Counted from the first letter of the stretch, positions 17,387-52,125 are shown. The stretch: DNA of 64,000 bases from a virus (IMGVR_UViG_3300035182_002389:64001-128000); one strand, 5' to 3'. Notes: generated from the letters alone by a model not told the origin. Program-made: numbers and translations.

Positions 17387-17926
17387 TCAGGCCGACTTGA
17401 CCGCGAGCGCGGGCACGTCGTCGGGCGTGAGCAGGACGACGGACTTGTCCGTCGTCGCCCGGATGGCGCTGAGCAGGTCTGCGCCCTTGAGCGCGCGCAC
17501 CGGCACGTTGGCGAGCGTCCCGCCCTGCTGGTAGCCGCCGAGGGTGTAGTCCGGGATGACGATCGTGTAGCCGTTCTGCGCGAGGAGCTTGAAGACGTCC
17601 GCGGCCGACTGGCCTGCCGGAATCGTCTGCCCAGCGGCCGGCGACAGCATCGAGATTTCGATGGCCGTCATCGTCGAGTTCGCGCCCTGCTTGTAGCCGA
17701 ACGCGCCGAAGCCGTAGCCCCCGCCGCTCATGAGCAGATCCGCGTCGGACTTCGCGAGCTTGACGGCCTGCACTTCGGGGAGCTTGTACTCGGGCGTCGC
17801 GGCCACGGGCGGCGGCAGCGCGGGCGCACCTCCCGCCGTCGGGGCGGCCGGCTTCTTCTTGTAGTAGTAGACGCCGACACCGATGGCGCCGGCACCGGCG
17901 AGGAGGAGGAGCGTAGAGGTCTTCAT
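17387..17926 (-). CDS. N-terminally membrane-anchored protein
   Basis: LLLLAGAGAIGVGVYYYKKK then Pro/Ala linker. Confidence 0.75.
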   Translation of the reverse strand: MKTSTLLLLAGAGAIGVGVYYYKKKPAAPTAGGAPALPPPVAATPEYKLPEVQAVKLAKSDADLLMSGGGYGFGAFGYKQGANSTMTAIEISMLSPAAGQTIPAGQSAADVFKLLAQNGYTIVIPDYTLGGYQQGGTLANVPVRALKGADLLSAIRATTDKSVVLLTPDDVPALAVKSA

Positions 17927-17953
17927 GGGTTCTCCGAGGGACAGGGACGTGAT

Positions 17954-18008
17954 GAGAAATCGGGAACGGGGACGGGAACGCTCGCTGCGCGAGCTGGAAA
18001 AGGGGACG
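17954..18008 (+). repeat. dispersed repeat family B, copy 2
   Basis: GAGAAATCGGGAACGGGGACGGGAACGCTCGCtgcGCGAGCTGGAA. Confidence 0.8.
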
Positions 18009-18010
18009 GA

Positions 18011-18961
18011 TTACGCCGACGCGGCGGCGTAGAGCTTGTCGAACTCGTCTTGGTTCCAGCCGACCAGAAGGTCGCCGTTCATGTCGATCACGGGGATGGC
18101 GGTCGTTGCGCCGTTGGTCGCGGTGCCGAGCTTCGTCCACATCGTGAGGTTGTTCTGCGAGCAGGTCGCGTCGCCGCACGCCACGTCCGCGAACGTGTAG
18201 GGGATGCCGGCCGCGTCCGCGTAGGCTCTGGCGGCCTTCGTATGCCCACACCACGTCGCGCCGTAGATGGTGATGGCCGGTTCGACCTTCGTCGCCGGCG
18301 CAGGTGGCGTCGAGCTTGCGGGAGGCGTGTCCGATCCGGTGGGAAAGAGCGGAGGCGGCGCATTGTCTGCGGGCGGGGCGTTGTCCGTCGGCCTCGGCGC
18401 GAAGAGTTCGAGGCCGGCTCGAAAGCGCGACGAGAAGGCGGGCTGCAACGCCTTCAGCGCGGCCGGGCGAAACGCGATGAGGGCAGCCGCAGACTTGAGC
18501 ACGGTCGGTTGCAACTGTGCCTGCATCGTGCGCATCGCGCTGAAGCCGACCGGGGCTTGCCACGGCGTGAACCCGGTCGCGGCGTTCTGAAGCGCGTCGA
18601 TGACCACGCGGTTCTGGAGCAGCGGGGCCGATCGGAAGCTCTGCGAAGACGCGGGGCGCACGAGCTGCATCGTGCTCATCTGGACTTGGTCGGGGGCCTG
18701 GGCAGGCACGGGCGGAGGCTGCGCAGGAGGAGACGGCGACGGCGACGGCGCCGGCAGCGTGGCGATGGTCGGGCCCACCCACGCGCATTTTCCGCTTGGG
18801 TCGCACGCGTACTGCTGCGAGACCCCGTCCGGGAGCGTTCGTACGTCGCCGTCCTTCGCCGTGGTCGCAGGCGCCGAGGGCGTCTTCGTCTTCTTGTAGA
18901 GGACGTACGCGACGCCAACACCGGCGGCGCCGAGGAGCAGATGGAGAGGCTTGATCGACAT
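18011..18961 (-). CDS. membrane-anchored protein with C-terminal glutaredoxin-like domain
   Basis: LLLGAAGVGVAYVLYKK; C-term ITIYGATWCGHTKAARAY...IPVIDMNG...VGW. Confidence 0.75.
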   Translation of the reverse strand: MSIKPLHLLLGAAGVGVAYVLYKKTKTPSAPATTAKDGDVRTLPDGVSQQYACDPSGKCAWVGPTIATLPAPSPSPSPPAQPPPVPAQAPDQVQMSTMQLVRPASSQSFRSAPLLQNRVVIDALQNAATGFTPWQAPVGFSAMRTMQAQLQPTVLKSAAALIAFRPAALKALQPAFSSRFRAGLELFAPRPTDNAPPADNAPPPLFPTGSDTPPASSTPPAPATKVEPAITIYGATWCGHTKAARAYADAAGIPYTFADVACGDATCSQNNLTMWTKLGTATNGATTAIPVIDMNGDLLVGWNQDEFDKLYAAASA

Positions 18962-18971
18962 GAGGGTCCTC

Positions 18972-18986
18972 GGCTTACCGCAAGCC
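18972..18986. promoter_or_regulatory. dyad motif
   Basis: GGCTTACCGCAAGCC, 10 nt upstream of the ATG at 18961. Confidence 0.75.
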
Positions 18987-18993
18987 TACACGT

Positions 18994-19416: not shown

Positions 19417-19433
19417 GGGAGGATCCTTCGTGT

Positions 19434-20564
19434 TCAGACGAGCGTGCCGTCGGCGTAGACCCACGCCGTGCCATTCCACCAGATCGGTTTGCCGTTGGCT
19501 CCGAGGGAGGTGTCGAAGTACGGCAGGCCGATGTTCTGCCCCGCGGCGAGAGGCGGACGCTGCGCAGTCGGACCCGCGAACGAGATGCCGCCCGGCAGGT
19601 TCACGAGCGTGCCCGTGAAGCCCACGGTCGGCGGGGTCACCGGCGAAGAGGTGCCGATGATCCAGAGCTGCGTCGTGCCGTCGCCCGAGACGACGTTTGC
19701 GGGAGACTGGCCGGGATTCAGCAGCGAGAGGATGCCGATGGCGTTCGGCGCGATGGCGATGATCGGGGCCGTCGAACCTGGATCGATCACGGAGGCGTTG
19801 TACAGCGCGACGATGACGCCGGGCCCGCCTCCCGTGTTCGGGGCATCCATCAGCGCCCGGCTCCCGAGGTTGCTCAGCGCCGCGCCAAGCTGGAGCACGA
19901 GCGCAGGAGGTTCGGCGGGGTTCGGCGCGTCGAAGGCGAAGGTTGCGAGCGAGGAGGGGATTCCTCGCACGGTCATCGAACCGACGATGCTGCTCAGGTT
20001 GCGAAGCTGCACGCCTTCGGGCGCTTCGAGCCGGTTCATGTCGGGGTTGCTGAAGGCCACCGACCGAAGGGTCGCGAGCTTCATGTCGTAGACGCCGAGC
20101 GGAATCGAGAACGGTCCCGACGTGACGCAGTCGATCCAGACGTCGATGGGCGAGGCGCTGAGGGCGATGAGGTCCATGACCTCGCCCCAGGTGTGCGCGT
20201 AACGAACGTCGGTCGGCGGCGCGTCCGGCTTGAAGATGATGCTGACCGGGTTCTCGTCGATCGCAGGAGCGTCCACGATACTCGTGCGAATCCACCGACC
20301 GATGCCCGTCGCATCGTGCGAAGTGGCCTGCTTTGCGCACAGGGCGCCCATCGCATCGCGTGCTTGCGGACCGTTGCAGGTCGACAGGACGTTGACGCCC
20401 GTGACCGCCGGCGCCGGGACGTGGAAGCTCAACCTATAGTAGCGTTCGAGGCTCTCCACGTGCGCGAGGCAGCCATCTTCGAGGCCGCTCGTGTCCGTGT
20501 TCTGAAGATCGCACGTCGTCTCGACGCGCAGAAATCCCGGGAACGGATTGTAGCCTTCCGTCAT
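19434..20564 (-). CDS. tail fibre/spike-like virion protein
   Basis: shares about 100-aa N-terminus with 20631..22220; C-term GLPYFDTSLG..KPIWWNGTAWV resembles phage fibre tips. Confidence 0.6.
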   Translation of the reverse strand: MTEGYNPFPGFLRVETTCDLQNTDTSGLEDGCLAHVESLERYYRLSFHVPAPAVTGVNVLSTCNGPQARDAMGALCAKQATSHDATGIGRWIRTSIVDAPAIDENPVSIIFKPDAPPTDVRYAHTWGEVMDLIALSASPIDVWIDCVTSGPFSIPLGVYDMKLATLRSVAFSNPDMNRLEAPEGVQLRNLSSIVGSMTVRGIPSSLATFAFDAPNPAEPPALVLQLGAALSNLGSRALMDAPNTGGGPGVIVALYNASVIDPGSTAPIIAIAPNAIGILSLLNPGQSPANVVSGDGTTQLWIIGTSSPVTPPTVGFTGTLVNLPGGISFAGPTAQRPPLAAGQNIGLPYFDTSLGANGKPIWWNGTAWVYADGTLV

Positions 20565-20600
20565 GAAGACCATCGTCCTCGATCTACGCGGGCGAGACAA

Positions 20601-20615
20601 GGCTTACGCCAAGTC
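20601..20615. promoter_or_regulatory. dyad motif
   Basis: GGCTTACGCCAAGTC between fibre genes. Confidence 0.75.
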
Positions 20616-20630
20616 TCACCCGGCCCAGGT

Positions 20631-22220
20631 CTACTTCGACCAGACCTGCCAGTAGACCGTCTGCGCCGCGTCCGCCGCCCCGCCCTTGCTCGTGATCGTG
20701 AAACTGACGCCGGCATTCACGTTCGAGAGGTAGAGAAAGCCCGTCGGCGCGACGCCGTTCGACTGGTAGCTGTACGTGACCGGCGTGCTGCCGCTGATTG
20801 CGGGAAGAAGAACGGTGAGCGCGCCGGCGCCATCCAGGGGGCCCTCACCGCTCGCAAGCGGTACGAGCGCCTTGAGCGCGTCGATTGCGTTCTGCACCGA
20901 TCCGCCAGGGCCGGTGAACGTGGGGAAGAGCACGGGCTGACCGGCAAGGACCGTCGCCCCAGGCGCCGGCGCACCCGGCGAGTTCAGGGCGCGCAGCTCG
21001 ATGTTCTCGCTGTCGAGGATCGTGACCACCGCGTAGCTGCCGCCACCAATCCCGATGAAGTCGCCCACGTGCAGGCACTGCGTCGAGTCGAACTTCGGCG
21101 TGATGGTCGACCAGAAGGCGGGCTGCACGAACGGCGTGATGAGATTCGCTTTGACCAGCGTGGGGGTGTGGGCCGCGTCGTCGTACGAGGCCTGCACGGC
21201 CTGGCTCAGCGTCGCCGCGAACCCGAACGGGCCCTGCCACGCGGGCTGGTTCGGCACGCCGTAGAACCACGTCGAGTCGTAGATGAAGTAGAGCCCAGCA
21301 CCCGGAGGACCCTTGAACGTGTTGTCGTAGCTGGTCGGTCCGAACGCAGGACCTGTCGAGCTGAACGCGATGAAACCGATGCCCGCGCCCGGCGCCGGTC
21401 CGCACTCGACGATCGGGATCGGGAACGAGCCGATGTCGAATGCAAGGTCGTTGAAGGACGCGACGAGGACGCCGCCTTGCGGCAAGTAGAGGCCAGAACG
21501 CGCGGTCGTCGCGACATTCTGGAGCCGAGCGCCTCTTGAGAAGGTGAGCAGGTTCGCGTCGTCCTGGATGATGCAGGGGCCCGTGCGCGCGTCGAGCTGA
21601 ATGACCAGGCCGTCTGTCACCTCGTAGAGATTTCGGATGACTCCGCCGAGGGGCTGGCGGAGGATCAGGTTCGGCGAGACGCCGCTCGGGCCCGTCGGGA
21701 TGTTCGCGCCCGCGAGGGTGAGGCGACCTTGGCCGTCCATCGGCACGGTCCACGGCGCGGGGGTCGCGGGCGGCATGAGCGAGTCGTCGACCTCGACGAT
21801 CAAGGCTCCGTTCGCGAGCGCAACCTGCGCCGCGACCTCGACGTCGGTCGCGAAGACATTGCCCTCGCTCACGCCGTTCGGGCGGTAGATGATCGTGCCC
21901 GAGCCCGAGGGCGAAGCTGTCGAGTCGAGGATCGAGGTGCGCACCCACCGCCCGATGCCGGTCGGGCTGTGCGCGCTCTGCCCCGGCTGCACGCAGGGGG
22001 CTCCGAACGCGTCGAGCCCGTCGGGCCCGTTCCAGGTCGAGAGCACGTTGACGCCGTCGACCGCGGGCGCGGGGACCTTCGTGCTCAGGCGGTAAAACCG
22101 GCCCGTGTCGACCACATATGCGAGGCAGCCCTCTTCGAGCCCGTCGGTCGACGAGTTCTGAAGCTCGCACGTCGTGGGCGCGGTGAGAAAGCCCGGGAAC
22201 GGGTTGTAGCCTTCGGTCAT
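20631..22220 (-). CDS. tail fibre/spike-like virion protein
   Basis: MTEGYNPFPGFL N-terminal module; beta-rich body. Confidence 0.6.
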   Translation of the reverse strand: MTEGYNPFPGFLTAPTTCELQNSSTDGLEEGCLAYVVDTGRFYRLSTKVPAPAVDGVNVLSTWNGPDGLDAFGAPCVQPGQSAHSPTGIGRWVRTSILDSTASPSGSGTIIYRPNGVSEGNVFATDVEVAAQVALANGALIVEVDDSLMPPATPAPWTVPMDGQGRLTLAGANIPTGPSGVSPNLILRQPLGGVIRNLYEVTDGLVIQLDARTGPCIIQDDANLLTFSRGARLQNVATTARSGLYLPQGGVLVASFNDLAFDIGSFPIPIVECGPAPGAGIGFIAFSSTGPAFGPTSYDNTFKGPPGAGLYFIYDSTWFYGVPNQPAWQGPFGFAATLSQAVQASYDDAAHTPTLVKANLITPFVQPAFWSTITPKFDSTQCLHVGDFIGIGGGSYAVVTILDSENIELRALNSPGAPAPGATVLAGQPVLFPTFTGPGGSVQNAIDALKALVPLASGEGPLDGAGALTVLLPAISGSTPVTYSYQSNGVAPTGFLYLSNVNAGVSFTITSKGGAADAAQTVYWQVWSK

Positions 22221-22247
22221 GCGTCCGAGCGTACACGAGCGCGCTCA

Positions 22248-22262
22248 GACTTGCGACAAGTC
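22248..22262. promoter_or_regulatory. dyad motif
   Basis: GACTTGCGACAAGTC. Confidence 0.75.
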
Positions 22263-22270
22263 GGACGAGG

Positions 22271-23647
22271 TCAGCGGATGCGCGTCATCGAAGCCGCGGC
22301 AAAGCCGCTGTTCACGCCTCCGCCGAAACCGGCCGCGTTGGTTGCGAGGTCGAGATTCGCGATGGTGAAGTTGCGCACCGTCGTGAGCGCGGGAGGCGCA
22401 ACCGTCGTGTCGTAGGCCGCCCCAGAAGTCGCCCCGTTCAACTTGAAATCGTAGGTCGCGGTGTCCGCACCGCGAGCCTGCACGCCCCCAGTCCACGTTG
22501 AGGGGAGGCACTGAACGACCCCGCAGCGAACCTCGAAGACGTACGAGCCCGCGACCGCCGAGAGGCCCGCGATGGAGTTCGAGGGACCGTTGACGAAGAA
22601 GCTCGCGCCTCTATCGACTTGGACGGCCGCGTTGGACCAATCCATGAACAGGACCTCGGTCCCAAACACGAAACATCCCGGATGGCCGAGATTCACGGTG
22701 ACGCCTTGAAATAGCGTTCCTTGGCTGAAGATGGTGAAGCCTGGTTCCCCGAAGCCGGGAGCGATGAGGAACAGGCCTCCGCGCCACTGCCACGAAGCCG
22801 GACCCGACGCTCCGAAGGTGATGGCTCCAGCCCCCGTCGGGCTACAGCAGTTGTAGGTCAGAACATTGCCCGACATGTACGTGCCAAACACCGTCGAAGA
22901 GAACCGGCAACTGAACATGTAGAGGTGGGCGTCGTTGCCCACGAAACTGTCCACGATCGTCGACGAGCGGAAATCGCAGAACTGCGCGAACATGCCGTTC
23001 GGTGCGACGAAGATCACGGCTCCCTTCGCATGAAAGCGAACCGCTCCCGTGAACACCGTCATCGTGTAGACGGAGAACGCGTCCGCGCTCACCGGAGCCA
23101 CCTCCGTCGCGAGAATCGTGACCGTGGAAGGCAGAACGCGAAACGTCGGGCAAAGCCGGTAGTGGCCGGCCACCCCGTTCCACGCGGTGACGACCTTGCC
23201 GATCCAGGCGTAACAGTTCGCGGTCGAGTCGTAGAAGAGCGCGCTGCCGACGTAGGCGTCGAGGTTTGCGTTGACCGAGATTTCGAGCGCGAGCCCCGAA
23301 GCCTGCGAGCGCTGATGGTCGACCGTGAGCACGCCGCTCGCGACCGACGTCAGCGTTCCCTGAATGATGACCTGTCCGCCCGACTGGAGATACGGCTCGA
23401 AAGTCAGGTCTTCGGCGACCGTCGCATCGAGGAACGTGATGGTCACGACCGCCGAGACGATCGGCGAGACGCCGTAGCGCTTGATGAATGCTGCGAACGT
23501 CTTCAGTGGCGCGGTCGAGGAGAGGCCGGTGTTCGCGTCGCTGCCGGTCGCGTTGCTGATCCAGATGGACAGGGCGGAGGAGATCGTCGCCGTCGACGTC
23601 TGCTGGATGAACTGCGAGATGCTCCCGGGGCTGTTGACGACGTTCAT
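22271..23647 (-). CDS. beta-helix (pectin-lyase-like) fibre/spike protein
   Basis: IWISNATGSDANTG...APLKT motif; paralog of 23667..25013. Confidence 0.55.
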   Translation of the reverse strand: MNVVNSPGSISQFIQQTSTATISSALSIWISNATGSDANTGLSSTAPLKTFAAFIKRYGVSPIVSAVVTITFLDATVAEDLTFEPYLQSGGQVIIQGTLTSVASGVLTVDHQRSQASGLALEISVNANLDAYVGSALFYDSTANCYAWIGKVVTAWNGVAGHYRLCPTFRVLPSTVTILATEVAPVSADAFSVYTMTVFTGAVRFHAKGAVIFVAPNGMFAQFCDFRSSTIVDSFVGNDAHLYMFSCRFSSTVFGTYMSGNVLTYNCCSPTGAGAITFGASGPASWQWRGGLFLIAPGFGEPGFTIFSQGTLFQGVTVNLGHPGCFVFGTEVLFMDWSNAAVQVDRGASFFVNGPSNSIAGLSAVAGSYVFEVRCGVVQCLPSTWTGGVQARGADTATYDFKLNGATSGAAYDTTVAPPALTTVRNFTIANLDLATNAAGFGGGVNSGFAAASMTRIR

Positions 23648-23666
23648 GGGTTTCTTCCTCTACCGA

Positions 23667-25013
23667 TCAAACCAGAGCCGCGGAGCCGTTCAGTCGAGAC
23701 GTGCTGCCGCCAAACCCAGAGACACCTGCCGCGGCATCGAGATGAGCAAAGGTGTACGTCACCTCGGCGGCTTGGATCCCCGAGCCCGGAACGTAGGGAG
23801 ACCCTTGCGTCTGCAACGGCAGCCCGATTTTGAAATCGTACGATGCAGTAGCCTGCCCTCGCGCATACACGCTTACGGCCCACGACGCCCCGAGATGCTG
23901 GGCGACGCCGCTCTCTCCTCGAATGACGTAGCTGCCCAACGCGGTGCTTGTCCCCGAGAGCTTTGAGATGCTGAACAAGCCTCCGTTGTCGAAACGAAGG
24001 GCTTGAACGGGCCAGTCCTGAACCATGGCATCGCCGATGAAAACCTGAGCGCATTGAGCGTAAGAATCGATCTCTCCGCCCTGCACCGTGAAGCCCGTCA
24101 AAAGGGTCACGGGAGTGCGGAAGGTAAGGTTGTTGATCGCCCCACCGCCAAGCAGATAGTAGGTCTGACCGTTGGAGTCGACGGGCCCTAGACTTGCCGC
24201 CGTCACCAACGCGTTCGAGATGAAGGATCCAGATCCAGTGGCGTATGTGAACGCCCCAGAATAGCGGACGTTTGCGGCGCACCCATACTTCGAGCTGCTT
24301 GTGAAGAGGGCCGGCTGATTGGTCGCGCTGGAGAAATCGGCGTTGATGACCCACATCGCACTGACGCTCGACCAAGTCTCGTTGCCTTGCGCCTGGATGT
24401 TGAACGCCCCCGAGAACTTCGTGAACGATACGAGATTGTAGGTATTGCCGTTCGCGACCGTTGCGACCTCCGTCGGAAACGGTCCGACAGCGACGCCGCA
24501 CTGAACGAGGGGCGTGAGGCGAACCTTGTTCGATCCCGTGTCCTTGATCGGCCAAGCGACCGCGCCGGTTCCCGACCCACTGGTCATGACGATCATGTTG
24601 ATCCCGACGTAGGTTGCCCACGTCTTCGTCGAATCCGTGATTTCGAGCGACGTGTTCGTAGTCGCGTTCCTCTGCGTCGGAACCGCCGTCAGCGAGCCCG
24701 AAGCAACAGTCGTCTGAGTGCCTGCCAAGACCACGGTTCCGCTCGAACCGACGATGGGCGAAAAGAAAATGTCCTCCGTCACCGTCGCGTCCAAAAACGT
24801 GATGATCAGCGAGGCGTTGACGATCGGCGAGACACCGTAGCGCGACACAAACGCGGCGAAGGTTGCGAGCGGCGCCGCCGCCGAGGTCCCCGCGTTCGCG
24901 TCGTTGCCGGTCGCGGCGCTCACCCAGATGCTCAGCGGCGTCGAGATGACGCCGCTCAGGGACGGCGAGAAGAACTGGTTGACGGAGCCGGGGCTGTTGA
25001 TGATGTCGGTCAT
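23667..25013 (-). CDS. beta-helix (pectin-lyase-like) fibre/spike protein
   Basis: IWVSAATGNDANAG...APLAT motif; paralog of 22271..23647. Confidence 0.55.
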   Translation of the reverse strand: MTDIINSPGSVNQFFSPSLSGVISTPLSIWVSAATGNDANAGTSAAAPLATFAAFVSRYGVSPIVNASLIITFLDATVTEDIFFSPIVGSSGTVVLAGTQTTVASGSLTAVPTQRNATTNTSLEITDSTKTWATYVGINMIVMTSGSGTGAVAWPIKDTGSNKVRLTPLVQCGVAVGPFPTEVATVANGNTYNLVSFTKFSGAFNIQAQGNETWSSVSAMWVINADFSSATNQPALFTSSSKYGCAANVRYSGAFTYATGSGSFISNALVTAASLGPVDSNGQTYYLLGGGAINNLTFRTPVTLLTGFTVQGGEIDSYAQCAQVFIGDAMVQDWPVQALRFDNGGLFSISKLSGTSTALGSYVIRGESGVAQHLGASWAVSVYARGQATASYDFKIGLPLQTQGSPYVPGSGIQAAEVTYTFAHLDAAAGVSGFGGSTSRLNGSAALV

Positions 25014-25044
25014 GGGCGTTGCCTCTTCGAGTCCTTGTGGGTTC

Positions 25045-25059
25045 GACTTGCTGCAAGCC
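25045..25059. promoter_or_regulatory. dyad motif
   Basis: GACTTGCTGCAAGCC. Confidence 0.75.
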
Positions 25060-25064
25060 GCCGA

Positions 25065-27782
25065 TTACAGGAGCACCGGCGCTGCGATCTGAACGAGGAC
25101 CGTGCCATTGGTCCCGTCGGCCGCGGCGAGGAGGCCCACGCGCAGGATCCAGTCGCCCTTCACGTACGCGCTCACGTCGAGGGTGAGCTTGCCAGGCGAT
25201 TTCGCCATGAAGACCGGCTGACCTGCGTTGGCCGCGAGGGGTGCTGCGGCCCACACGGTCGCACCCGCGGTCGTCGTGATCTTGCCGCCCGTCTGGATGA
25301 CGACGGAGCCCGGGAAACCGCCCGAGACCGTCGAGAGGCCGAGCGCGTAGCCTGCGAGGGCGCCCTGGCCGCCGACTCCGTCATTGGCCGCGTCGGTGTT
25401 GAAGACCTTTGCCGTGCCCGCGACGTCCTTGTAGAAGACTGGCGAGCCAATGCCGACCATCGCTTCGCCGGCCACCTCGGTGACAACGGTCGTCGATGCT
25501 GCGGCGCCCGAGTGGGTGTGCAGAGCATCCGCGTTCGACGTCGAGCCGGCCGTGAGCGTGTCGAGGTTCGCGGCGGTGACCTGCCCCACGCCGGATACGT
25601 TGTGCACGTGCACGCCGGCAATCGCGAAATTGTCCGTCGCCGTTGCGCTGCCGCCCGGCAGGTCGATGTAGCCCGTCGCGGCGCAGCTCAGGACGATGCC
25701 CGCCTGCACGACGGTGTTCGACGAGAGCTTGACGGAGTTGGTGTTCGCCGCGCCGAGGACGACGTCGCCCTTGGTCGCGCCGTTGCCGGCGTTGAGCGTG
25801 ACGTTGCCGCCCGTCGTCGTGCCCGCACCGCCCGTGAGCGTGACGCCGCCGCCCGTCGTCGTGCCTGCACCGCCCGCGATGGACGTCAGGCCGCCGACCC
25901 CTGCTGCGCCCGAGCCGGCCGCGATGGTAAGCGCGCCGCCCGTCGTCGAGCCCGAGCCTGCCGTGAGGCCGACCGTGCCGCCGCTGCCTCCCGCGCTCGC
26001 GCCCGCCGTGAGCGTGAGGTTGCCTCCAACTGTTCCGCCGGCCGCCGCAGCCACCGCGGCGTTGCCGCCCGCGCCCGCCGCGGAGCTGCCTCCCGTGAGG
26101 CTCGCCGCGCCGCCCGCACCGCTTGCTGCGCCTGCCGCGCCGCCGTTGATGGAGACTGCGCCGCCCGTGCCCGAGGTCGTCGAGGTGCCACCGTTCAATG
26201 TGAGCGCGCCCGAGGCCGCGCTGTCGGCGCCGCCGGCCGAGATCGTCAGGCTGCCGCCCACCGTCGCGCCCGTAGAGGCCGCGACGCCGAACGAATAGGT
26301 GCCCGCGCCCTGCGTCTTGGTGAAGGTCGTCGTCTGGTTCGAGATCGAGAAAACGCCCGAGTTCAGCGCGGCGCCCGTGCCGTGGATCTTGACGAAGCCG
26401 TGCGTCGAAGTGCCGCCGCCGATGAAGATGCTGTCGGTCGTGTAGCTCGCCGTGATCTGCGTACCGATCGAGATGGTGCCGCTCGACGAGACGCCGGTGC
26501 CGCCGTCGATGTTGACCGAACCGCCGCCGGCAGTGTCCGCGATGCCGCCCGCGATCTGAATGGCGCCGCCGACGAAGGTCGCGCCCTTGCTGTTGCCACC
26601 GAGGACCAGGACCGCGCCGCCCGTACCGATGGTGTTCGCGTCGCCGCCGTAGACGTGCACGGCGCCGCCCGTGCTGCTGACGGTGCCCCAGCCTTGGCCA
26701 CCCGTCAGCTCCAATGCGCCACCGACGCCCGACGTCGCACCACCACCGCCGGCCCACACCGAAGTGATGGCACCGTTGCCGGTCGCGCCCGCGTCGCCTG
26801 CGTACAGCAGCAGCGTCCCGCCGCTACCGCTACCGAACCCAAAGCCCGATGAGAAGCTTGCTCCGCCGCCCACATCGTTCGCGCTGTTCGCCGATCCGGC
26901 CCAGATGTCGAGACCGCCGCCATCGCCAGCCGTCGAGCTGCGCACGTACAGCTCGTAGCTGCCGGCGCCGTTGGTCCGCTCGAACCGCGTCGCCTGATTG
27001 AAGATCGTCGTGATCCCCGAGTTCAGAGGCGCCGACGCGATACCGTGAAGGAGGATCGTGCCGTTGGCCGACGTCCCTCCACCGATATGGATGTTGTTGG
27101 TCGTGTACGTCGCGAGAGCCTGTGTACCGATCTTGACGTCGCCCGTCGCGATTGTTGCGACCGTGCCCTTGCCGCCGTCGATGAGGACGTTGCCGCCGGT
27201 GCCCGCGCCAGCGATGTTCGGACCGCCGTAGACATGCGCATCGCCTGCGGTCGACCCTGCGCTCGTACCGCTACCCCCGCGCAGCTCCGAGTTGCCGCCC
27301 GTGAGACCGCCGGTGCCGCCCGCCATGAAAAGCGCGCCACCGACGCCCTGACCCGCCGTACCACCCGCATACCCTCCGAAGATGGAAGCTCCGCCGCCCA
27401 ACGTGTCGTTGGAGGAAAAACCTGCCGAGATGTCCACCGCACCGCCCGTGACACCAGAGCCGCCGCGCAAAGACGCATCGCCGCCCGTGCCGAGCGTGGA
27501 AGCGCCTGCCGTGAGGCTTGCTGCGCCGCCTGTGCTCGCGGTCGAAGAGGCGCCGCCCGTCAGCGAAAGGCCTCCGCCGACCCCGGCCGTCGCGCCACCC
27601 GCGCCCGCTGTCACGCTGAGCGCGTAGCCGACCCCAGTGCCCGCGCCAAAGGGAGCGCTCGTCACCGCGAGCGCGCCGAACGCGTCGATACCGTTGTAGA
27701 CCGACAGCGATTGCGCGGTCTTCAGGCGCGAGTTGACGCCGGCTTGGCTCGTGATCGGGAGGGTCAAGATCGTCGCGGCCAT
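25065..27782 (-). CDS. 905-aa glycine-rich repeat virion fibre protein
   Basis: dozens of GGxxxLxxG repeats; globular C-terminal domain of about 130 aa. Confidence 0.7.
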   Translation of the reverse strand: MAATILTLPITSQAGVNSRLKTAQSLSVYNGIDAFGALAVTSAPFGAGTGVGYALSVTAGAGGATAGVGGGLSLTGGASSTASTGGAASLTAGASTLGTGGDASLRGGSGVTGGAVDISAGFSSNDTLGGGASIFGGYAGGTAGQGVGGALFMAGGTGGLTGGNSELRGGSGTSAGSTAGDAHVYGGPNIAGAGTGGNVLIDGGKGTVATIATGDVKIGTQALATYTTNNIHIGGGTSANGTILLHGIASAPLNSGITTIFNQATRFERTNGAGSYELYVRSSTAGDGGGLDIWAGSANSANDVGGGASFSSGFGFGSGSGGTLLLYAGDAGATGNGAITSVWAGGGGATSGVGGALELTGGQGWGTVSSTGGAVHVYGGDANTIGTGGAVLVLGGNSKGATFVGGAIQIAGGIADTAGGGSVNIDGGTGVSSSGTISIGTQITASYTTDSIFIGGGTSTHGFVKIHGTGAALNSGVFSISNQTTTFTKTQGAGTYSFGVAASTGATVGGSLTISAGGADSAASGALTLNGGTSTTSGTGGAVSINGGAAGAASGAGGAASLTGGSSAAGAGGNAAVAAAAGGTVGGNLTLTAGASAGGSGGTVGLTAGSGSTTGGALTIAAGSGAAGVGGLTSIAGGAGTTTGGGVTLTGGAGTTTGGNVTLNAGNGATKGDVVLGAANTNSVKLSSNTVVQAGIVLSCAATGYIDLPGGSATATDNFAIAGVHVHNVSGVGQVTAANLDTLTAGSTSNADALHTHSGAAASTTVVTEVAGEAMVGIGSPVFYKDVAGTAKVFNTDAANDGVGGQGALAGYALGLSTVSGGFPGSVVIQTGGKITTTAGATVWAAAPLAANAGQPVFMAKSPGKLTLDVSAYVKGDWILRVGLLAAADGTNGTVLVQIAAPVLL

Positions 27783-30940: not shown

Positions 30941-30959
30941 GAACGGCATCGTACCTTCT

Positions 30960-42523: not shown

Positions 42524-42527
42524 GCCG

Positions 42528-44910: not shown

Positions 44911-45422
44911 TGGTCCACGCGCCGCGCTTCTCGTTCCGCGTCGACCCGAAGACGGGCGCTGTCCGCGGCCATCTTTCGAGCGTGCCGTCGATCAGCTCCA
45001 TCGGCTTCTACCCGGCGTCGTTCGGGCGAGACAGCTACGTGCGCGGCAAGGAGGCGCCCGAGTTCCTCCGCGTCGAGCTGGTGAAAGAAGGCGAGAAGGC
45101 GCCCGGGTTCGTCCTCGCACGCAAGCTCGACGCAAAGGACGTCAACAAGCACTGCCGGCAAGGGCTCGAAGAGCTGAGCCGCTCGCCGATCGTGTACCTC
45201 GTCTACGCTTCGGCCGTGCACCACCCGCATCGCGGCCAGGGGCTCGGCGCGCTACTCTACGCAACGGCGCTGGTCCTCGCGAGCGTGGAGGGCGCGCCCA
45301 TCGTTGCCGACGACTGCTTCGGTGGCATCACGAGCGAGCTTGCTTCACAGGTCTGGCGAAGCCGCGCGCTCGCCGAGGTCGCGCACGTGCGAGGCAACGT
45401 TGCCGTCTTGAAGCGTCAGTAG
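44910..45422 (+). CDS. GNAT-like protein (paralog family with 53382 and 56092)
   Basis: SAVHHPHRGQGLGALLYATAL...ADDC..G.TS..A.QVW.SR.L. Confidence 0.65.
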   Translation: MVHAPRFSFRVDPKTGAVRGHLSSVPSISSIGFYPASFGRDSYVRGKEAPEFLRVELVKEGEKAPGFVLARKLDAKDVNKHCRQGLEELSRSPIVYLVYASAVHHPHRGQGLGALLYATALVLASVEGAPIVADDCFGGITSELASQVWRSRALAEVAHVRGNVAVLKRQ

Positions 45423-45907
45423 GTGACGCCCGCGACCTCGGCCGCGTCGACGTGCGAGCCCACGCTGTCGTGCCAGGCGATCGTGACCGTCACGGGCTTT
45501 GCGTCCATCACCGTGAAATCGGGCGCGTCGATCGGGGAGCGGTAGGCCAGCACGCCCGAGGGGCTCACGTCGATCTTGTCGACGACGGCGCCAGAGGCTG
45601 CCGGGATGAACTTCACCCCTGCGCCGATGGGCAACTGGTTCGGCGTCGCGATGCCGCCACTGAGGACCACGGGCAGGGTCGTCTCGGCATACGGGCCCGA
45701 GCCCGGCGAGGTCCCCTTGAGCGGAGGGAAGGTCGGGGGCGCGTTCTTCACCGCGCTCACGTTCGAGCCGCCGGCGGGCGCCGTGTTCGCGGTCCCGCGG
45801 TTCTTCAGGAGCAGATAGCCGACCGCGACGACGCCAGCGGCTCCGAGCAGGAGCAGCGTCGTGTTCGATCCGGGCGAGGTCTTCGGGCTGAGCGAGTCGC
45901 CGGACAT
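45416..45907 (-). CDS. N-terminally membrane-anchored protein
   Basis: LLLLGAAGVVAVGYLLLKNR. Confidence 0.7.
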   Translation of the reverse strand: MSGDSLSPKTSPGSNTTLLLLGAAGVVAVGYLLLKNRGTANTAPAGGSNVSAVKNAPPTFPPLKGTSPGSGPYAETTLPVVLSGGIATPNQLPIGAGVKFIPAASGAVVDKIDVSPSGVLAYRSPIDAPDFTVMDAKPVTVTIAWHDSVGSHVDAAEVAGVTY

Positions 45908-45932: not shown

Positions 45933-46340
45933 TCAGGACGGCGTGTAGCCGAGCGCTGCCGCCAGATCGGCGATCTGCTTTGCGGCGGCCGTAAAACCGT
46001 TCGCGACGAGCTTGTTGTAGTACGACTCGTAGAGGAACTTGCCCGTCGATGCCGTCGCGGTCCCCGCCTTCTGCATGAGGACGGCCTTGTCGTAGTTGCC
46101 CTTCACCATGTCCCAATCGCTCGACAGATCGGCGATCGTCGTCGTCGATGGAGACGCTACGGGCGCGGCCGGCGTGGAAGGCGCGGCCGGCGTGGAAGGC
46201 GCGGCGGGCGCAGCAGGCGCAGCCGGTGTGGAAGGAGCAGCGGGCGCGATCAACGACTGCGCCGCGGTGCTCTTGCGAGTGAAGAGGTAGATCGCGGCGC
46301 CGGCAACGCCGACCCCCAACAGAAGGTGAATGGTCTTCAT
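45933..46340 (-). CDS. N-terminally membrane-anchored protein with Pro/Ala linker
   Basis: LLLGVGVAGAAIYLFTRK; PAAPSTPAAP repeats. Confidence 0.75.
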   Translation of the reverse strand: MKTIHLLLGVGVAGAAIYLFTRKSTAAQSLIAPAAPSTPAAPAAPAAPSTPAAPSTPAAPVASPSTTTIADLSSDWDMVKGNYDKAVLMQKAGTATASTGKFLYESYYNKLVANGFTAAAKQIADLAAALGYTPS

Positions 46341-46663: not shown

Positions 46664-47236
46664 TCAGCCCTGTGCGGTGTTGGAGGCCCAGAGGACTTCC
46701 TGCGACGGACCGTAGACGACGAGGTTGCCGTCGTCCTGCATCGCGAGGAGCGCGCCGGGATGGCCGTCTGTCCCGGTTGCCCAAAGGGCGGCTCCCGCGT
46801 CGTTGTAGACGACCGCATTGCCGTCCTCTTGCATGATGAGGAACGACTTTCCGTCGCTCCGCGTGTCCGAACTCCACAGCGCCGCGCTGCCTGCGTAGAG
46901 CACGAGGTTGCCGTCCGACTGCATCGTCAGGTGGTAGGCCCCGTTGCAGGAGGCCATGGTGCTGCCGTTGTTCACCCTTTGCATCGCCGAGATGTGCGCG
47001 CCGCCGCCCGTGCAGTACGGGTTCGTCGGCACGCCCGGCACGGGACCGGCCGGCGCAGGGGCCGGCGCAGGGGCCGGCGCAGGGGCCGGCGCGGGAGCCG
47101 GCGCAGGGGCGCTGAGCACAATCCTCTTCGTGATCGAGGGCATGGCCACGAGCGCGGGCTTCTTGTTCTTCGAGTGCAGGTAGTACCCGACGACCGCGAG
47201 CGCCACGCCACCGCCGACGAGGTAGGAGGTCTTCAT
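46664..47236 (-). CDS. membrane-anchored bulb-type (mannose-binding B-lectin) domain protein
   Basis: three QxDxNxVxY motifs (QSDGNLVLY, QEDGNAVVY, QDDGNLVVY); TM plus (PA)n linker. Confidence 0.9.
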   Translation of the reverse strand: MKTSYLVGGGVALAVVGYYLHSKNKKPALVAMPSITKRIVLSAPAPAPAPAPAPAPAPAPAPAGPVPGVPTNPYCTGGGAHISAMQRVNNGSTMASCNGAYHLTMQSDGNLVLYAGSAALWSSDTRSDGKSFLIMQEDGNAVVYNDAGAALWATGTDGHPGALLAMQDDGNLVVYGPSQEVLWASNTAQG

Positions 47237-47268
47237 GGTCGCCATCGTACCACGGCGATCGCCCGCAT

Positions 47269-47459: not shown

Positions 47460-47481
47460 TGCCGTGATACCCTACCCTTCA

Positions 47482-48060
47482 ATGGCCAAGCGGGCGATCC
47501 TCCCCTACGTGCTCGGCGGAGCGGCGCTCCTCGGCGTCATCGTTCTTGCACGCCGAAGCAGCGCCCAGGCGCTCGCCCCAAGTCCGAGCGTGCGCACGTG
47601 GCCCGTGGTCCCCAACCGGGGCACCATCAGCGGGTTTGGGGCTCCGCGCCCTGCGGGAAAGTACCCCGCGCGCTACCACGCCGCCGTGGACGTCGGCGCG
47701 CAGGACGGGGACAAGGTCGTCGCGATCGACGACGGCGAAGTGCTCAAGCTCGTCACGGGCTACCAGATTGGCGCAGGCCTTCAAGCGGTCGCCATCCGTC
47801 ACCCCGACGCCGACTACATCTACGCCGAGATCCAGGTGACGGCGGTGCCCGGCCAGCGTGTCAAGGCGGGCGACGTCATCGGCGTCGTGCGCCAGAACGA
47901 CTCTGGTCCGGGGCACCAGATGCTTCACCTCGAAGCGTGGCAGACCGGGATGGTGCCGGACGCTTTCAAACCGTGGTACGTGGGCCAGGCCGCGCCGCCG
48001 GGCCTGCTCGACGTAGGCAAGATTCTCGCGCCCCTCGCGAACACGGGAGTGAAGCCGTGA
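47482..48060 (+). CDS. M23 family metallopeptidase with N-terminal TM
   Basis: YHAAVD (HxxxD), GQRVKAGDVIG, MLHLE. Confidence 0.88.
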   Translation: MAKRAILPYVLGGAALLGVIVLARRSSAQALAPSPSVRTWPVVPNRGTISGFGAPRPAGKYPARYHAAVDVGAQDGDKVVAIDDGEVLKLVTGYQIGAGLQAVAIRHPDADYIYAEIQVTAVPGQRVKAGDVIGVVRQNDSGPGHQMLHLEAWQTGMVPDAFKPWYVGQAAPPGLLDVGKILAPLANTGVKP

Positions 48061-48088
48061 CCTTCATCCGAGCTGTTGAGAAGATCGC

Positions 48089-48199
48089 TCGGGGGGTTGC
48101 GCACCCCCCGAACCCCCGCGCCACCTGCGGTGGGACTTTTGTTGGGGCTCTGCCCCAAACCCTGCTGAGGGGCGCTTCCAGCGCGCCCCTCAGACTCCC
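48089..48199 (+). repeat. dispersed repeat family A, copy 5
   Basis: four-hairpin element with compensatory variation. Confidence 0.9.
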
Positions 48200-48217
48200 T
48201 GCCGCGGGAGTGAAGCC

Positions 48218-48997
48218 GTGAGCCGCTCTCTTTCCGTCAAGGCCTCGCGCTGGTCAACCACGGAGATCGCCATGGCGGTCGGCGGAGGACTCCTTGCTGT
48301 CGCGGCTTTTGCGATCGCGAAGAAGACCTTCGAGCAACGCCCCCTCGCGGTCGGCAACTACTTCTTCCCGTTCCACGACGCCGAATACCTCAGCCCCGGG
48401 CAGAGTCTGGGTGGACAGGCCTTCGTCCCTCCCGGCGCGCGAGACAACGCCCGCCTCCTCGTCTACCTGCACGGCAACAACGACGGCGGCATGATGCACG
48501 GCGGGATGGGCGCGACCGACACGGCCTACGACCTTCGCAAGATCGTGCCTTCGGACACCATCGTCGCGGCGCCCAGCCAGACGCGAAACGCCTCGGGCGC
48601 GGGGCTCTGGGCGGGCTTCAACCTCGACGAGTTCGTTGCCGCGGTCGAGCGCGCGACAGGGGCCACGATCGACAAATCGCGCGTGATTCTCATGGGCCAC
48701 AGCGGCGCCGGATGCAGCTCGGTCGGCGGCCTCTTCGGCAAGCTCGGGGTCATCAAACCGCAGCTCGTCGCCGTCGTCGACGTCTGCGCGGGGCCCATGT
48801 ACGGAGAGGCATACGGCAGGCTCGCCGAACAAGTTCCCGTGCGCGTGTTCTACCAAACGCGCACGTGGTCGCGAGACTTCGCGGGCTTCCAAGCGGGCTT
48901 GAGGGGCCGCGCGACCTTCGAGGAGGTTCAGACCCCAGCCGGGCAGAGTCCCCACAGCGCCATCGTCCCCATCGTCGCGAAGATGGTGCTCACGTGA
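48218..48997 (+). CDS. membrane-anchored alpha/beta-hydrolase
   Basis: TM; LLVYLHGNN; nucleophile elbow GHSGAG; C-terminal His (PHSAI). Confidence 0.75.
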   Translation: MSRSLSVKASRWSTTEIAMAVGGGLLAVAAFAIAKKTFEQRPLAVGNYFFPFHDAEYLSPGQSLGGQAFVPPGARDNARLLVYLHGNNDGGMMHGGMGATDTAYDLRKIVPSDTIVAAPSQTRNASGAGLWAGFNLDEFVAAVERATGATIDKSRVILMGHSGAGCSSVGGLFGKLGVIKPQLVAVVDVCAGPMYGEAYGRLAEQVPVRVFYQTRTWSRDFAGFQAGLRGRATFEEVQTPAGQSPHSAIVPIVAKMVLT

Positions 48998-49158: not shown

Positions 49159-49160
49159 GC

Positions 49161-49656: not shown

Positions 49657-49657
49657 T

Positions 49658-50230: not shown

Positions 50231-50239
50231 GGGGTCCTG

Positions 50240-51535
50240 TTAGATCCTGACCGGCACGAGAGCCTTGTCGGAGGGAAGCAGTGCGAGGCGCATGCCGGGC
50301 ATCTTCCCGGTCGCGACCACGTCACCATTCACGAACGTGAGGGTCTGCCCGACAACGGGAACGGGCTGCCCTGCTGCCACGGCCGCACGAAGGTCCTGGA
50401 GCAGCGCGTCCGAGATGGCCAGCGATCGGCCGCCGTCGAGCGCCGAGGCGATCTTCCCCGCGTTGAGCTGCGGGGTCTGCTGGATCAGAGGCGCGCTGCC
50501 CGTGAAGGCCCGTCCGCGCACACCGGCCGTCGCCGCGACCGGCAGGACGTTCACGCCGATGTCATAGGGAGCGCTCGGATCGACGCCCTGCACGTCGTGG
50601 AGATCGAGGAGCACGTTCAGGCTCACCAGCGCGTCGATGAGCGCCTTCTTCTCGGCGTCGGACAGCTCCGAAGCAAGAACGGTCATCGACACGGGGGGAG
50701 GCGTGTCGAGAGGAATGGGCGTCATGCCGCCGCCCGGCCCGACTCCACCCGGCCCGACAGGCGGCCTCCCAAGCCCCGGCGGCGCGGACGGCACCGGAGG
50801 CGGCGGGGGAGGCGTCGGGTTGAACGCGGGGCCCGCGCCCTTGAGCACGCTTGCGGCCTCGTTCGGGCGCAGAAAGAGCAGATCGGTCGGATCCGTCGAC
50901 GTCGGCGTCGAGGAGGTCCTGATCGTTTTCCCGTCCGCGCTCACGAACACGTACAGGCCGGGGAACGCGGGAACACTCGGCGAAGGCTTCGGGCACTGGT
51001 CAGGAGGCGTGCCCATCAGGCAGGGCGACGACGTGCTCGTCGGAATCTCTGCGCGCGGCGTGTTCGCGCTCTGGATCCAGACGAGAATCGAGTCGCTCGC
51101 ATCGGGCGCCTGCATCGCGTACGTCCGCGCCAGCGGCTGATAGCCGGGAGGAGGGGCCATCCCCATTCCCGGGGAGTAGACGGCCTTGGAAATCTGCACG
51201 GGAAGCAGCGCAAGCGGGACGCTGTTCGGCGTCTCGATGGCCCCTCTCCGGTTCGTCGCGAACGCGTTGTAGTCGCTGCCGACACCGGGAGGAGGCGGCA
51301 GGACGGGCGCGATCGAGGTCGCCTTCGAGAGCGCCTTCCACATGCCGACCTTCTCGTCGGCCGTCAGCTCGCCCGTCGCGGTCGAGGGACCGAGATTCGC
51401 GCCGCCCGGAGCCAGCACGTTGCGCATGCCTTGGGCGCCCGCTCCGCCCGACGAGGGCTGGCCCGCGTACCACTTGTAGAGCAGCACGCCGCCGACGGCA
51501 GCACCACCGAGCATCAGGAGCGAGCTTGCCTTCAT
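50240..51535 (-). CDS. N-terminally membrane-anchored Pro-rich protein
   Basis: LLMLGGAAVGGVLLYKWY; Pro-rich body. Confidence 0.75.
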   Translation of the reverse strand: MKASSLLMLGGAAVGGVLLYKWYAGQPSSGGAGAQGMRNVLAPGGANLGPSTATGELTADEKVGMWKALSKATSIAPVLPPPPGVGSDYNAFATNRRGAIETPNSVPLALLPVQISKAVYSPGMGMAPPPGYQPLARTYAMQAPDASDSILVWIQSANTPRAEIPTSTSSPCLMGTPPDQCPKPSPSVPAFPGLYVFVSADGKTIRTSSTPTSTDPTDLLFLRPNEAASVLKGAGPAFNPTPPPPPPVPSAPPGLGRPPVGPGGVGPGGGMTPIPLDTPPPVSMTVLASELSDAEKKALIDALVSLNVLLDLHDVQGVDPSAPYDIGVNVLPVAATAGVRGRAFTGSAPLIQQTPQLNAGKIASALDGGRSLAISDALLQDLRAAVAAGQPVPVVGQTLTFVNGDVVATGKMPGMRLALLPSDKALVPVRI

Positions 51536-51559
51536 GGCGTCGAGCGTATTCTTCCGTTC

Positions 51560-51574
51560 GGCTTGCGACAAGTC
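51560..51574. promoter_or_regulatory. dyad motif
   Basis: GGCTTGCGACAAGTC between divergent genes. Confidence 0.75.
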
Positions 51575-51600
51575 GATAAGGCTCGTGATACGATCCCGGG

Positions 51601-52125
51601 ATGGCGAACACCGGGCTCATCGTCGGCGGCGTCGGCATCGCAGCGCTCGCTGCCTACGCGGCATTCGGCAAAGAGAAGCCGCGATTTGCCGACGAGCCGA
51701 TGCCGCGGCCGGGACCGCGATCTACGGGGCCGACCTCCATGCGCTTGGGCCCGTCCTCGATGCGCTCCAGCGTCGTCCAAGGCGCGCCGCGGCCTCAGCC
51801 GGCCCCCTCCGTCGAGACGCGCGAGCCGGCGTCGGGGAGGCCTACGACCCACAAGCGAGCGTTCCAGATCGGACCCTATCAGGTGTCGATTCAGGACGGC
51901 CCCTACCACTACGCTTCTCCGGGCGAAACCGTCGAGATCGGCATCTTCCTGCGAGGGTCGCTCATCAACCCGAAGCGCATCGGCCTGCACAAGTACGCGA
52001 AGTTCTGGGAGAAGGGCAACAACCCCGTGGGCGTCCACGTGCCCATCGCCGCCGCCAACCAGCTCCTTCGCGACATCGAGCGGCATGCCGGTTACAAGGC
52101 TCAGCCCCTGAAGAGGAAATCGTGA
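51601..52125 (+). CDS. N-terminally membrane-anchored protein
   Basis: LIVGGVGIAALAAYAAFGKEK; dyad plus TACGAT 6 nt before the ATG. Confidence 0.7.
   Translation: MANTGLIVGGVGIAALAAYAAFGKEKPRFADEPMPRPGPRSTGPTSMRLGPSSMRSSVVQGAPRPQPAPSVETREPASGRPTTHKRAFQIGPYQVSIQDGPYHYASPGETVEIGIFLRGSLINPKRIGLHKYAKFWEKGNNPVGVHVPIAAANQLLRDIERHAGYKAQPLKRKS

Follow-up and report, generated by a model that had tools for sequence, protein, structure and literature searches.

One predicted membrane-anchor cassette on about 40 unrelated, often envelope-directed proteins of a 202-kb uncultured bacterial virus

Why would a bacterial virus fit the same short membrane anchor to a lectin, a peptidase, an esterase and many proteins that resemble none of these, and on which side of the membrane would such payloads come to lie? 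The question is raised by a stretch of 64,000 nucleotides (the window), which comprises bases 64001–128000 of one 202,518-bp record of an uncultured bacterial virus in IMG/VR (IMGVR_UViG_3300035182_002389). Between positions 17387 and 52125 it contains eleven genes that an earlier, sequence-only reading had grouped together, since their products share a hydrophobic helix, a basic cluster and usually a linker ahead of seemingly interchangeable payloads. The record is linear, with 65% GC and a CheckV completeness of 94%; its DNA was detected in metagenomes from sediment and microbial mats, and a megablast search of 20 kb against phage records gave zero matches. Coordinates are window positions unless marked 'genome' or given on contigs L003, L025 or L109. 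Judged from the genes, one standard anchor is fitted to about 40 unrelated proteins of this 202-kb virus, many of them envelope-directed, and the cassette, which appears specific to the virus, very probably stays uncleaved and tethers its payloads to a membrane. The payload classes are a lectin, an M23 peptidase, an esterase, peptidoglycan-binding domains, GDSL hydrolases and a redox domain.

Open reading frames (ORFs) were called from third-position GC (GC3), which gave 249 across the whole record, and the genome-wide anchor statistics rest on the 26 of the record's proteins that carry the anchor at the N-terminus (N-anchors). A profile built from these 26, with a match cut-off of at least 8 bits, returned 34 matches, about eight of them beyond the training proteins, including uncalled ORFs and C-terminal copies. 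When a strict definition of the architecture was applied, 17/249 ORFs of the virus conformed to it, as opposed to 0/266 control ORFs put through the identical pipeline (0/55 in Myxococcus phage Mx8, 0/63 in bases 1–50000 of Caulobacter phage phiCbK, and 0/148 among ORFs of Myxococcota chromosomes). Because these controls have 67% GC or come from Myxococcota, the architecture is not a by-product of GC content. An artefact of the 65% GC composition or of wrong start codons would have in its favor that high GC enriches Gly, Ala and Pro, and that three starts had to be moved, but the empty controls, and orthologues that retain both helix and cluster, make it hardly credible. All eleven ORFs first listed are present, in frames with GC3 of 0.82–0.93, although several of the starts assigned to them were not correct: the lectin start was moved from 47482 to 47245 (MATMK), that of the 50240 gene lies at 51535, and that of the 33708 gene probably at 34718. 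Position 47482 does mark a gene, being the ATG of the M23 gene on the plus strand (47482–48060) and not part of a minus-strand ORF at 47479–47928. A twelfth window member, missing from the list, lies at 57506–57727.

The cassette consists of an N-tail of 2–16 residues, a short Gly/Ala-rich helix with an aromatic end, a Lys/Arg cluster and usually a Pro/Ala/Thr stalk. A positional consensus was obtained by aligning the 26 anchors on the first charged residue past the helix. It starts with Met and 2–6 residues, frequently with one Lys, after which the helix opens Leu-rich, shows a GG about 12–13 residues ahead of its end (GG or GxG occurs in 24/26 N-anchors) and has a Tyr peak at −4/−5 relative to that end. 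The helix measures 18.1 ± 2.9 residues, with 19% Gly, 38% Gly + Ala and 44% Gly + Ala + Ser + Thr, and its mean Kyte–Doolittle hydrophobicity over 15 residues ranges from 1.7 to 2.65. The first charged residue past it is Lys in 21/26 and Arg in 5/26, usually followed by a second basic residue and then by Ala, Pro, Thr or Ser; on average there are 2.15 Lys/Arg in the five residues past the helix versus 0.77 in the five before. The stalks (Pro, Ala, Gly, Ser, Thr) span 0 to about 75 residues, the esterase having none, whereas the (AP)n run of the lectin begins about 20 residues past the helix; 'usually' was thus the right word for the linker. The shared anchor–linker–payload build is borne out by these statistics together with the controls, and to call the payloads interchangeable is fair, because most of them show no mutual relationship. 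The anchored proteins also stand apart in composition: 15 of the 26 are Cys-free where 2.4 would be expected (Fisher p = 0.002, against length-matched other proteins), and both Arg (3.3% versus 7.7%) and Glu (2.6% versus 5.5%) are depleted relative to the others. This composition is of the extracytoplasmic type.

A helix at the N-terminus might simply be an ordinary signal peptide, which would be cleaved to release a soluble secreted payload, and the M23 protein even has an AQA motif 5–7 residues past its helix. In 26/26 N-anchors, however, Lys/Arg residues directly follow the 18-residue core and occupy the region where cleavage would take place, in contrast to the AXA-ended signals found among 66 Myxococcota chromosomal homologues of the esterase. 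Cleaved signals are thus very improbable, and the sequence features agree here with the earlier reading, for which cleavage of the helices would have been fatal. A lipobox is absent from all 12 window members. The virus does encode a canonical lipoprotein (38427–38975, minus strand), with MRKLYK, a hydrophobic h-region and an LTSC lipobox, and a conserved counterpart lies on the related contig L003 at 3920–4378; by its sequence the viral lipoprotein is an internal control, indicating that a normal export signal is used when one is needed. Two other types of N-terminal signal were considered and rejected, namely the type IV prepilin leader (there is no G|F/M-T-L-x-E motif) and the twin-arginine translocation (Tat) signal, as the RR sits past the helix rather than ahead of it.

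The distribution of charge bears on which way the anchored proteins face. Lys and Arg were compared in the 15-residue flanks on either side of the helix, and the C-flank exceeded the N-flank in 21/26 N-anchors with 0 reversed (Wilcoxon p = 4e-5). Basic residues right past a hydrophobic core hinder Sec translocation of the downstream chain, and this rule, combined with the observed bias, makes a C-in prediction reasonable. The pattern also matters for the signal-arrest-release (SAR) alternative, according to which the helices of the M23 protein, and of the lysozyme that is anchored in a relative, would hold the lysin at the membrane until depolarization frees it into the periplasm. The Gly/Ala/Ser/Thr content of the helices would suit such a scheme, as would lysin payloads on helices of this kind. 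SAR lysins such as P1 Lyz and phage 21 R, on the other hand, are basic in the N-tail, neutral or acidic in the C-flank and stalkless, whereas in the present proteins the residues past the helix are RR or RPK; about 40 proteins carry the anchor, mostly non-lysins, and in the window the only lytic payload is that of the M23 protein. Moreover, a soluble Rv2525c-like (GH25-like) glycoside-hydrolase-like protein at 55361–56083 (minus strand) is a candidate conventional endolysin. An SAR role is improbable, and it may apply to the lysins only.

A further line of evidence comes from the other end of the chain. Genome-wide, about eight proteins without a signal peptide carry the same cassette as their C-terminus, these versions ending in KTRAR, KESVRRPRLVRA or KKA. 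Among these are a GDSL hydrolase, whose catalytic motif begins as early as residue 12, and three 370-aa paralogues (genome 18457–19578, 160377–161492 and 195672–196799; L005–L007) with 6–8 conserved Cys; all four end in a Pro/Ala linker, a Gly-rich helix and a basic tail. As they have no signal peptide, the payloads of the tail-anchored proteins must be made in the cytoplasm. For the 370-aa family the AlphaFold2 model reached a predicted local distance difference test (pLDDT) score of 33, so any function has to be read from the structural lead in the Atlas, where the nearest structures (TM-score 0.77) are bacterial hypothetical proteins in four close clusters, one with the C-terminal secretion tails of the type IX secretion system (T9SS) and the other three without an annotated family. 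C-terminal sorting of the MYXO-CTERM, PEP-CTERM or LPXTG type was rejected for the tail-anchored proteins, which lack the N-terminal signal peptide that it needs.

From these observations a path for the payloads may be proposed. The basic cluster would keep the helix uncleaved and would block Sec export of the payload; if it does bar export, then both the N- and the C-anchor classes would leave their payloads on the cytoplasmic face. That face would come to point outward once a membrane for the virion had been pinched off within the cell, and the payloads could then act in host recognition and cell-wall penetration during entry. On balance, payloads that face the cytoplasm at synthesis, and later point outward from a viral membrane formed within the cell so as to serve at entry, are about an even bet. 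A C-in orientation had at first been thought odd for a lectin or a peptidoglycan peptidase. It is not odd for membranes pinched off from the cytoplasmic side, as with PRD1 and PM2 (PMC6356626, PMC3782422, PMC13552765). Display on a lipid-containing particle is plausible because of the analogy with PRD1, PM2 and the signal- and tail-anchors of organelles.

Several points weigh against cytoplasm-facing payloads and their display on a particle. In 21 orthologues from relatives, the C-flank is the more basic in 11, the flanks are equal in 6 and the N-flank is the more basic in 4, and the 16-residue N-tail of the esterase itself carries a charge of +3; because of these basic N-tails the positive-inside argument, which holds in this genome, is not robust family-wide. 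The tail-anchors would require up to five basic residues to be moved across the membrane. Invariant paired Cys (C166 and C190 of the esterase, and two in each repeat of the 33708 protein) would fit periplasmic folding, and since searches of the virus's own genome for Erv1/ALR sulfhydryl oxidase, thioredoxin, YidC and PspA/IM30 gave no match (E ≤ 1), neither a viral pathway for cytoplasmic disulfides nor an insertase of viral origin is supported. A helix followed by a Pro-rich stalk and a peptidoglycan-directed domain is the classic N-in/C-out build of proteins that span the periplasm, such as TonB, FtsN and MotB. In the related 160-kb contig L025, the M23–esterase gene pair is surrounded by DNA-metabolism rather than structural genes. 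No FtsK/HerA-type packaging ATPase (PF01580) matched at E ≤ 1, in a search that left double-jelly-roll capsid families outside its scope, and with no packaging ATPase of the double-jelly-roll lineage a relationship with PRD1 or PM2 is not established. Finally, the case for lipid, for particles and for payload topology is an indirect one, read from the genes.

According to the main rival explanation, the anchored proteins would be type II (N-in, C-out) inner-membrane proteins of the infected cell, in which the helix is an uncleaved signal-anchor and the stalk spans the periplasm so that the payload reaches the cell wall or outer membrane, for lysis, envelope remodelling or superinfection exclusion, or they would be displayed on an outward-budding envelope. 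In its favor, bacterial members of the payload families are found in the periplasm or are secreted, the TonB/FtsN/MotB-like build comes with stalks of up to 75 residues, several orthologues (P0008, P0009) have N-tails more basic than their C-flanks, the M23–esterase pair of L025 lies among genes of early type, and conserved Cys pairs are present. Yet the more basic N-flank of TonB- or FtsN-like type II proteins is seen in 0/26 N-anchors of this virus, as against 4/21 of the orthologues, and the Lys/Arg that abuts the helix in 26/26 would strongly hinder Sec export. The type II explanation also leaves unexplained why tail-anchored proteins without a signal peptide carry the same cassette, and the virus's lipoprotein has a normal signal. 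It is accordingly possible but rather doubtful. What would remain in that event is a large yet ordinary set of viral inner-membrane proteins with periplasm-facing payloads.

The most solid new result concerns the signals that the payloads carry, and it is best seen in the esterase (48218–48997, plus strand). Of its 32 homologues, the 19 closest, which are metagenomic and 44–94% identical, all begin with a Gly-rich helix, and at least one of these sits on a 160-kb virus-like contig; the distant homologues instead have classical Sec, Tat or lipoprotein signals. Two or more Lys/Arg within five residues past the hydrophobic core are present in 14/18 viral esterases versus 6/66 Myxococcota chromosomal ones, and in the 66 chromosomal homologues the payload is preceded by a signal peptide, 50/66 of which end AXA-like. 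The redox protein of the window tells a similar story, in that WCGAC marks the domain of its sole non-self homologue (P0038), a protein with a Pro/Ala linker whose export signal is of the lipoprotein type, with a lipobox. These bacterial (Polyangia) relatives of the esterase and the redox domain thus have cleavable export signals in the place that the anchor takes in the viral proteins. In the virus or its lineage, then, domains of the secreted type have had their export signal exchanged for an anchor that is not cleaved. Where bacterial relatives of these envelope-directed proteins were found, they are of the secreted type. Anchored orthologues range from 40 to 94% identity with the cassette retained; for example, the helix and an RK(S/K) cluster persist in two homologues of the 29879 protein at 40% identity, which on contig L003 adjoin further anchored genes, including one for an anchored phage lysozyme.

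The esterase also gives a clue to the host. One genome per prokaryotic species was scanned for its relatives, of which 82 were found and 80 kept (L029–L108). All 80 loci are labelled Myxococcota or with a broader label that contains it (Deltaproteobacteria, Proteobacteria), and most belong to Polyangiaceae/Polyangiales; they point to a host among the Polyangia and to gene exchange with it.

What, then, are the payloads in the window? The esterase, of 259 aa, has a basic N-tail of 16 residues, the helix and KK, without a stalk. AlphaFold2 models it with a pLDDT of 93, and Foldseek matches the model to esterases and polyhydroxybutyrate (PHB) depolymerases with probability 1.0 (TM-score about 0.45–0.54), whereas a sequence search of the PDB gave nothing significant. 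Ser162 (in GHSGAG), Asp188 and His246 are invariant in 32 sequences, and by modelled fold and GxSxG motif the protein is an alpha/beta hydrolase, PHB-depolymerase-like, with a Ser–Asp–His triad. Its neighbor is the M23 protein (192 aa; 47482–48060, plus strand), which has MAKR, the helix, RR, a short Ser/Ala/Pro stalk and a Peptidase_M23 domain (PF01551; 42.3 bits against a cut-off of 28.7). The HxxxD motif is present as HAAVD, while the HxH site reads M-L-H, as it does in two relatives, and the best solved relative in sequence is a phage internal virion protein (9k2v_E). The M23–esterase gene pair is conserved: in L025 (9444–10768) the two genes overlap by 4 nt, whereas in the window (47482–48997) they are separated by a 157-nt gap with a palindromic repeat, a similar repeat lying ahead of the M23 gene.

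The bulb-type lectin (193 aa; 46664–47245, minus strand) is built of MATMK, the helix, HSKNKK, a rigid (AP)n stalk and a B_lectin domain (PF01453) that scores 36.5 bits against a cut-off of 32.4 and has all three QxDxNxVxY sugar-binding motifs intact. A protein on an unrelated low-GC viral contig (L109, 2317–3726) starts with a helix and a basic patch and continues with a stalk of Thr/Gly/Ser repeats and a B-lectin domain, past which come an (APITAP)n repeat and a further C-terminal region; these features mark it as a convergent, predicted membrane-tethered lectin. The redox protein (316 aa; 18011–18961, minus strand) has the helix, KKTK, a Pro-rich middle and a C-terminal domain (aa 228–310) of thioredoxin fold, glutaredoxin-like, with the active site WCGHT. 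Scores for this domain stay below the curated cut-offs (17 bits versus 22.9 in Pfam, 29 versus 88.6 in NCBIfam; PHROG thioredoxin domain, 1e-4), and the site is CGHT rather than CxxC. The resemblance to glutaredoxin and thioredoxin is thus at the level of the fold and the glutaredoxin-like assignment is weak, unlike the lectin, M23, alpha/beta-hydrolase and Cys-repeat assignments of the sequence-only reading, which stand. The Cys repeats belong to a protein of 336 aa when read from its ATG (33708–34718, minus strand), which has MDPNTKK, the helix and KSSK, then a Pro/Ala stalk (crudely measured, about 38 aa) and four 62-residue repeats with Cys fixed at positions 8 and 45 of each; Tandem Repeats Finder did not detect the repeats in the DNA.

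The payloads of six further members (17387, 29879, 45416, 45933, 50240 and 51601) had no family match in profile and structure searches. The first (179 aa; 17387–17926, minus strand) has MK, the helix TSTLLLLAGAGAIGVGVYYY, KKK, a Pro/Ala stalk of about 23 aa and a payload of about 110 aa without Cys, for which Pfam, PHROG, NCBIfam and the Atlas returned nothing; a weak paralogue lies at genome 159285–159854. The second (356 aa; 29879–30949, minus strand) has a stalk of about 50 aa and a Cys-free payload of about 250 aa. Neither of these two payloads had usable neighbors in the Atlas, and a search of viral contigs for related loci with the 17387, 29879 and 33708 proteins gave no relatives. Two small proteins are encoded next to each other on the minus strand, one of 163 aa (45416–45907) with a 15-aa N-tail, the helix, KNR, a Gly/Ala/Thr/Pro stalk and a small payload, and one of 135 aa (45933–46340) with MKTIH, the helix, RK, a 50-aa stalk of Ala, Pro, Ser and Thr and a helical payload of about 65 aa; the latter is the top match of the anchor profile, at 28 bits. 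The largest (431 aa; 50240–51535, minus strand) combines MK, the helix, KWY and a Gly/Ser/Ala stalk with a large Pro-rich payload, and when compared with 1.84 billion representatives it matched only itself and one other, weakly. The sixth (174 aa; 51601–52125, plus strand) has MAN, the helix, GKEKPR, a Pro/Arg/Ser-rich linker and a small payload. The additional twelfth member (57506–57727, plus strand) is a protein of 73 aa with two Gly-rich helices and KGK past the second. Beyond the window, N-anchors are carried by three peptidoglycan-binding proteins and one GDSL hydrolase.

The anchored genes adjoin a spike/fibre cluster of host-recognition type at 19434–27782, which includes a Gly-rich repeat fibre of 905 aa (25065–27782, minus strand) and two host-recognition cluster proteins (19434–20600 and 20631–22220, both minus strand), one starting with MTEGYNPFPG, a spike-anchor motif that is seen elsewhere in the genome too, and one having a K1-lyase C-terminal domain that, at 25.5 bits, is slightly below the cut-off. 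A palindrome, CTT-N5-AAG (typically GCTTGCGACAAGC), occurs with 99 strand-matches where 2–6 would be expected, usually 5–40 nt upstream of start codons; the window sites are at 18973, 20602, 22249, 27826, 30961, 34751, 35438, 47270 and 51561, and about 50 more are found genome-wide. It precedes 12/34 anchored genes versus 23/215 others (p = 6e-4) and spike and fibre genes have it ahead of them too. A role as promoter or operator of the virus is probable, and the occurrence of the palindrome ahead of both anchored and spike/fibre genes suggests that they are co-regulated. Among the anchored genes are two that encode lipid-type enzymes (28572–29519 and 32529–32789, both minus strand). One of this pair is a double-HKD protein of the phospholipase D (PLD) family (PLDc_2, 139.6 bits), whose best NCBIfam matches, DISARM DrmC, cardiolipin synthase and NucT, are all below their cut-offs; the other has a domain like that of CDP-alcohol phosphatidyltransferases (27.5 bits versus a cut-off of 22). 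A protein with a Gp49-like domain is encoded at 52145–53377 (plus strand). Terminase_6N and HK97 capsid had no match in the virus's own genome at E ≤ 1, in a record that is rated 94% complete; like the composition of the anchored proteins, the shared palindrome and the lipid-type enzymes, this counts in favor of the path proposed for the payloads.

Known membrane-containing phages have genomes of 10–15 kb and a handful of membrane proteins, and we know of no mechanism by which proteins are sorted into their membranes. If the cassette does act as proposed, it would provide a simple, testable sequence code for such sorting, exemplified by about 26 N-terminal anchors, to which the profile adds others, and by about eight at the C-terminus, as well as a natural series of secreted enzymes of the host lineage that were re-addressed by exchanging a signal peptide for an anchor. 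It would also mean that a membrane-tethered set of lectin, peptidase and esterase serves to cross a myxobacterial envelope, and the cassette could be used for protein display on vesicles. New elements are the charge statistics and the observation that they fail to hold among orthologues, the exchange of export signal for anchor, the argument from the tail-anchored proteins, the compositional signature and the analogy with organelles.

Of the known systems that resemble the cassette, SAR endolysins (P1 Lyz, phage 21 R) also place a Gly/Ala-rich N-terminal helix on a wall-degrading enzyme, but they differ in charge pattern, and here there is a stalk and most payloads are not lysins. TonB, FtsN and MotB share the N-terminal helix, the extended Pro-rich linker and, at the C-terminus, a domain for binding to the wall or the outer membrane; their basic residues are on the N-side, whereas the cluster here follows the helix. 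The major coat proteins of Pf3 and M13 have a short N-tail, a Gly-containing helix and a basic, aromatic, cytoplasmic C-flank, and are inserted N-out, C-in in a YidC-dependent manner. They stop past the basic flank, however, whereas here a stalk and a payload of 60–500 residues follow.

Two classes of mitochondrial and chloroplast outer-membrane proteins have exactly the pair of signals found in the virus, namely either an N-terminal helix with about three basic residues (Tom20, OEP7) or a C-terminal helix with a basic tail (Fis1, Toc33). To our knowledge, no such post-translational anchor pathway has been described for bacterial viruses. A moderate helix with about three basic C-flank residues is what the viral anchors show as well, in sequence features only. 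In organelles, signal- and tail-anchors of this kind, moderately hydrophobic and with a basic C-flank, stay uncleaved and leave most of the protein on the cytosolic side (PMC4010795). As these systems are eukaryotic, the likeness is one of functional analogy. By that analogy one may speculate that an organelle-style sorting code, placed at either end of a protein, diverts about 40 envelope-directed proteins from Sec export and loads them post-translationally onto the cytoplasmic face of an intracellular viral membrane, a face that would become the outer surface of a very large, tailless, lipid-containing particle, with the basic cluster serving as both Sec-evasion and virion-sorting signal; taken as a whole, this proposal is tentative and rather unlikely.

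The nearest phage precedents are PRD1 and PM2, with which there is no sequence homology. They have a handful of members in genomes of 10–15 kb, as opposed to about 40 in 202 kb, and the present proteins differ from theirs in the length of the Pro/Ala stalks and in having large payloads that are enzymes or lectins. The likeness lies in a single terminal Gly-containing helix that is followed by basic or aromatic residues, the helix being, by sequence, N-terminal in PM2 P6 and PRD1 P16 and C-terminal in PM2 P3 and PRD1 P7, with flanks such as ...WLWFRNRPAAQ in P16, ...LLLKNRGGG in P11, ...VWFYQK in PM2 P6, ...MRGNK-end in P3 and ...IKRK-end in P8. PRD1 also has a tail-anchored lytic enzyme, P7 (P7/P14), without a signal peptide, and it is from this absence that we infer its orientation. 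The membrane patch of PRD1 is pinched off inward (PMC6356626), and the membrane protein P16 makes contact with the vertex, its soluble part facing the capsid (PMC3782422); in PM2, the N-terminal domain of P3 lies under the capsid while its C-terminal helix extends to the membrane, and P6 is described only as contacting the membrane (PMC13552765). Phage phi6, too, gains its envelope within the cytosol (PMC6366064). The soluble parts of PRD1 P16 and PM2 P3 lie on the capsid side of a membrane pinched off into the cytoplasm, which is the arrangement that is proposed here, from the genes, for the anchored lectin, peptidase, esterase and their companions.

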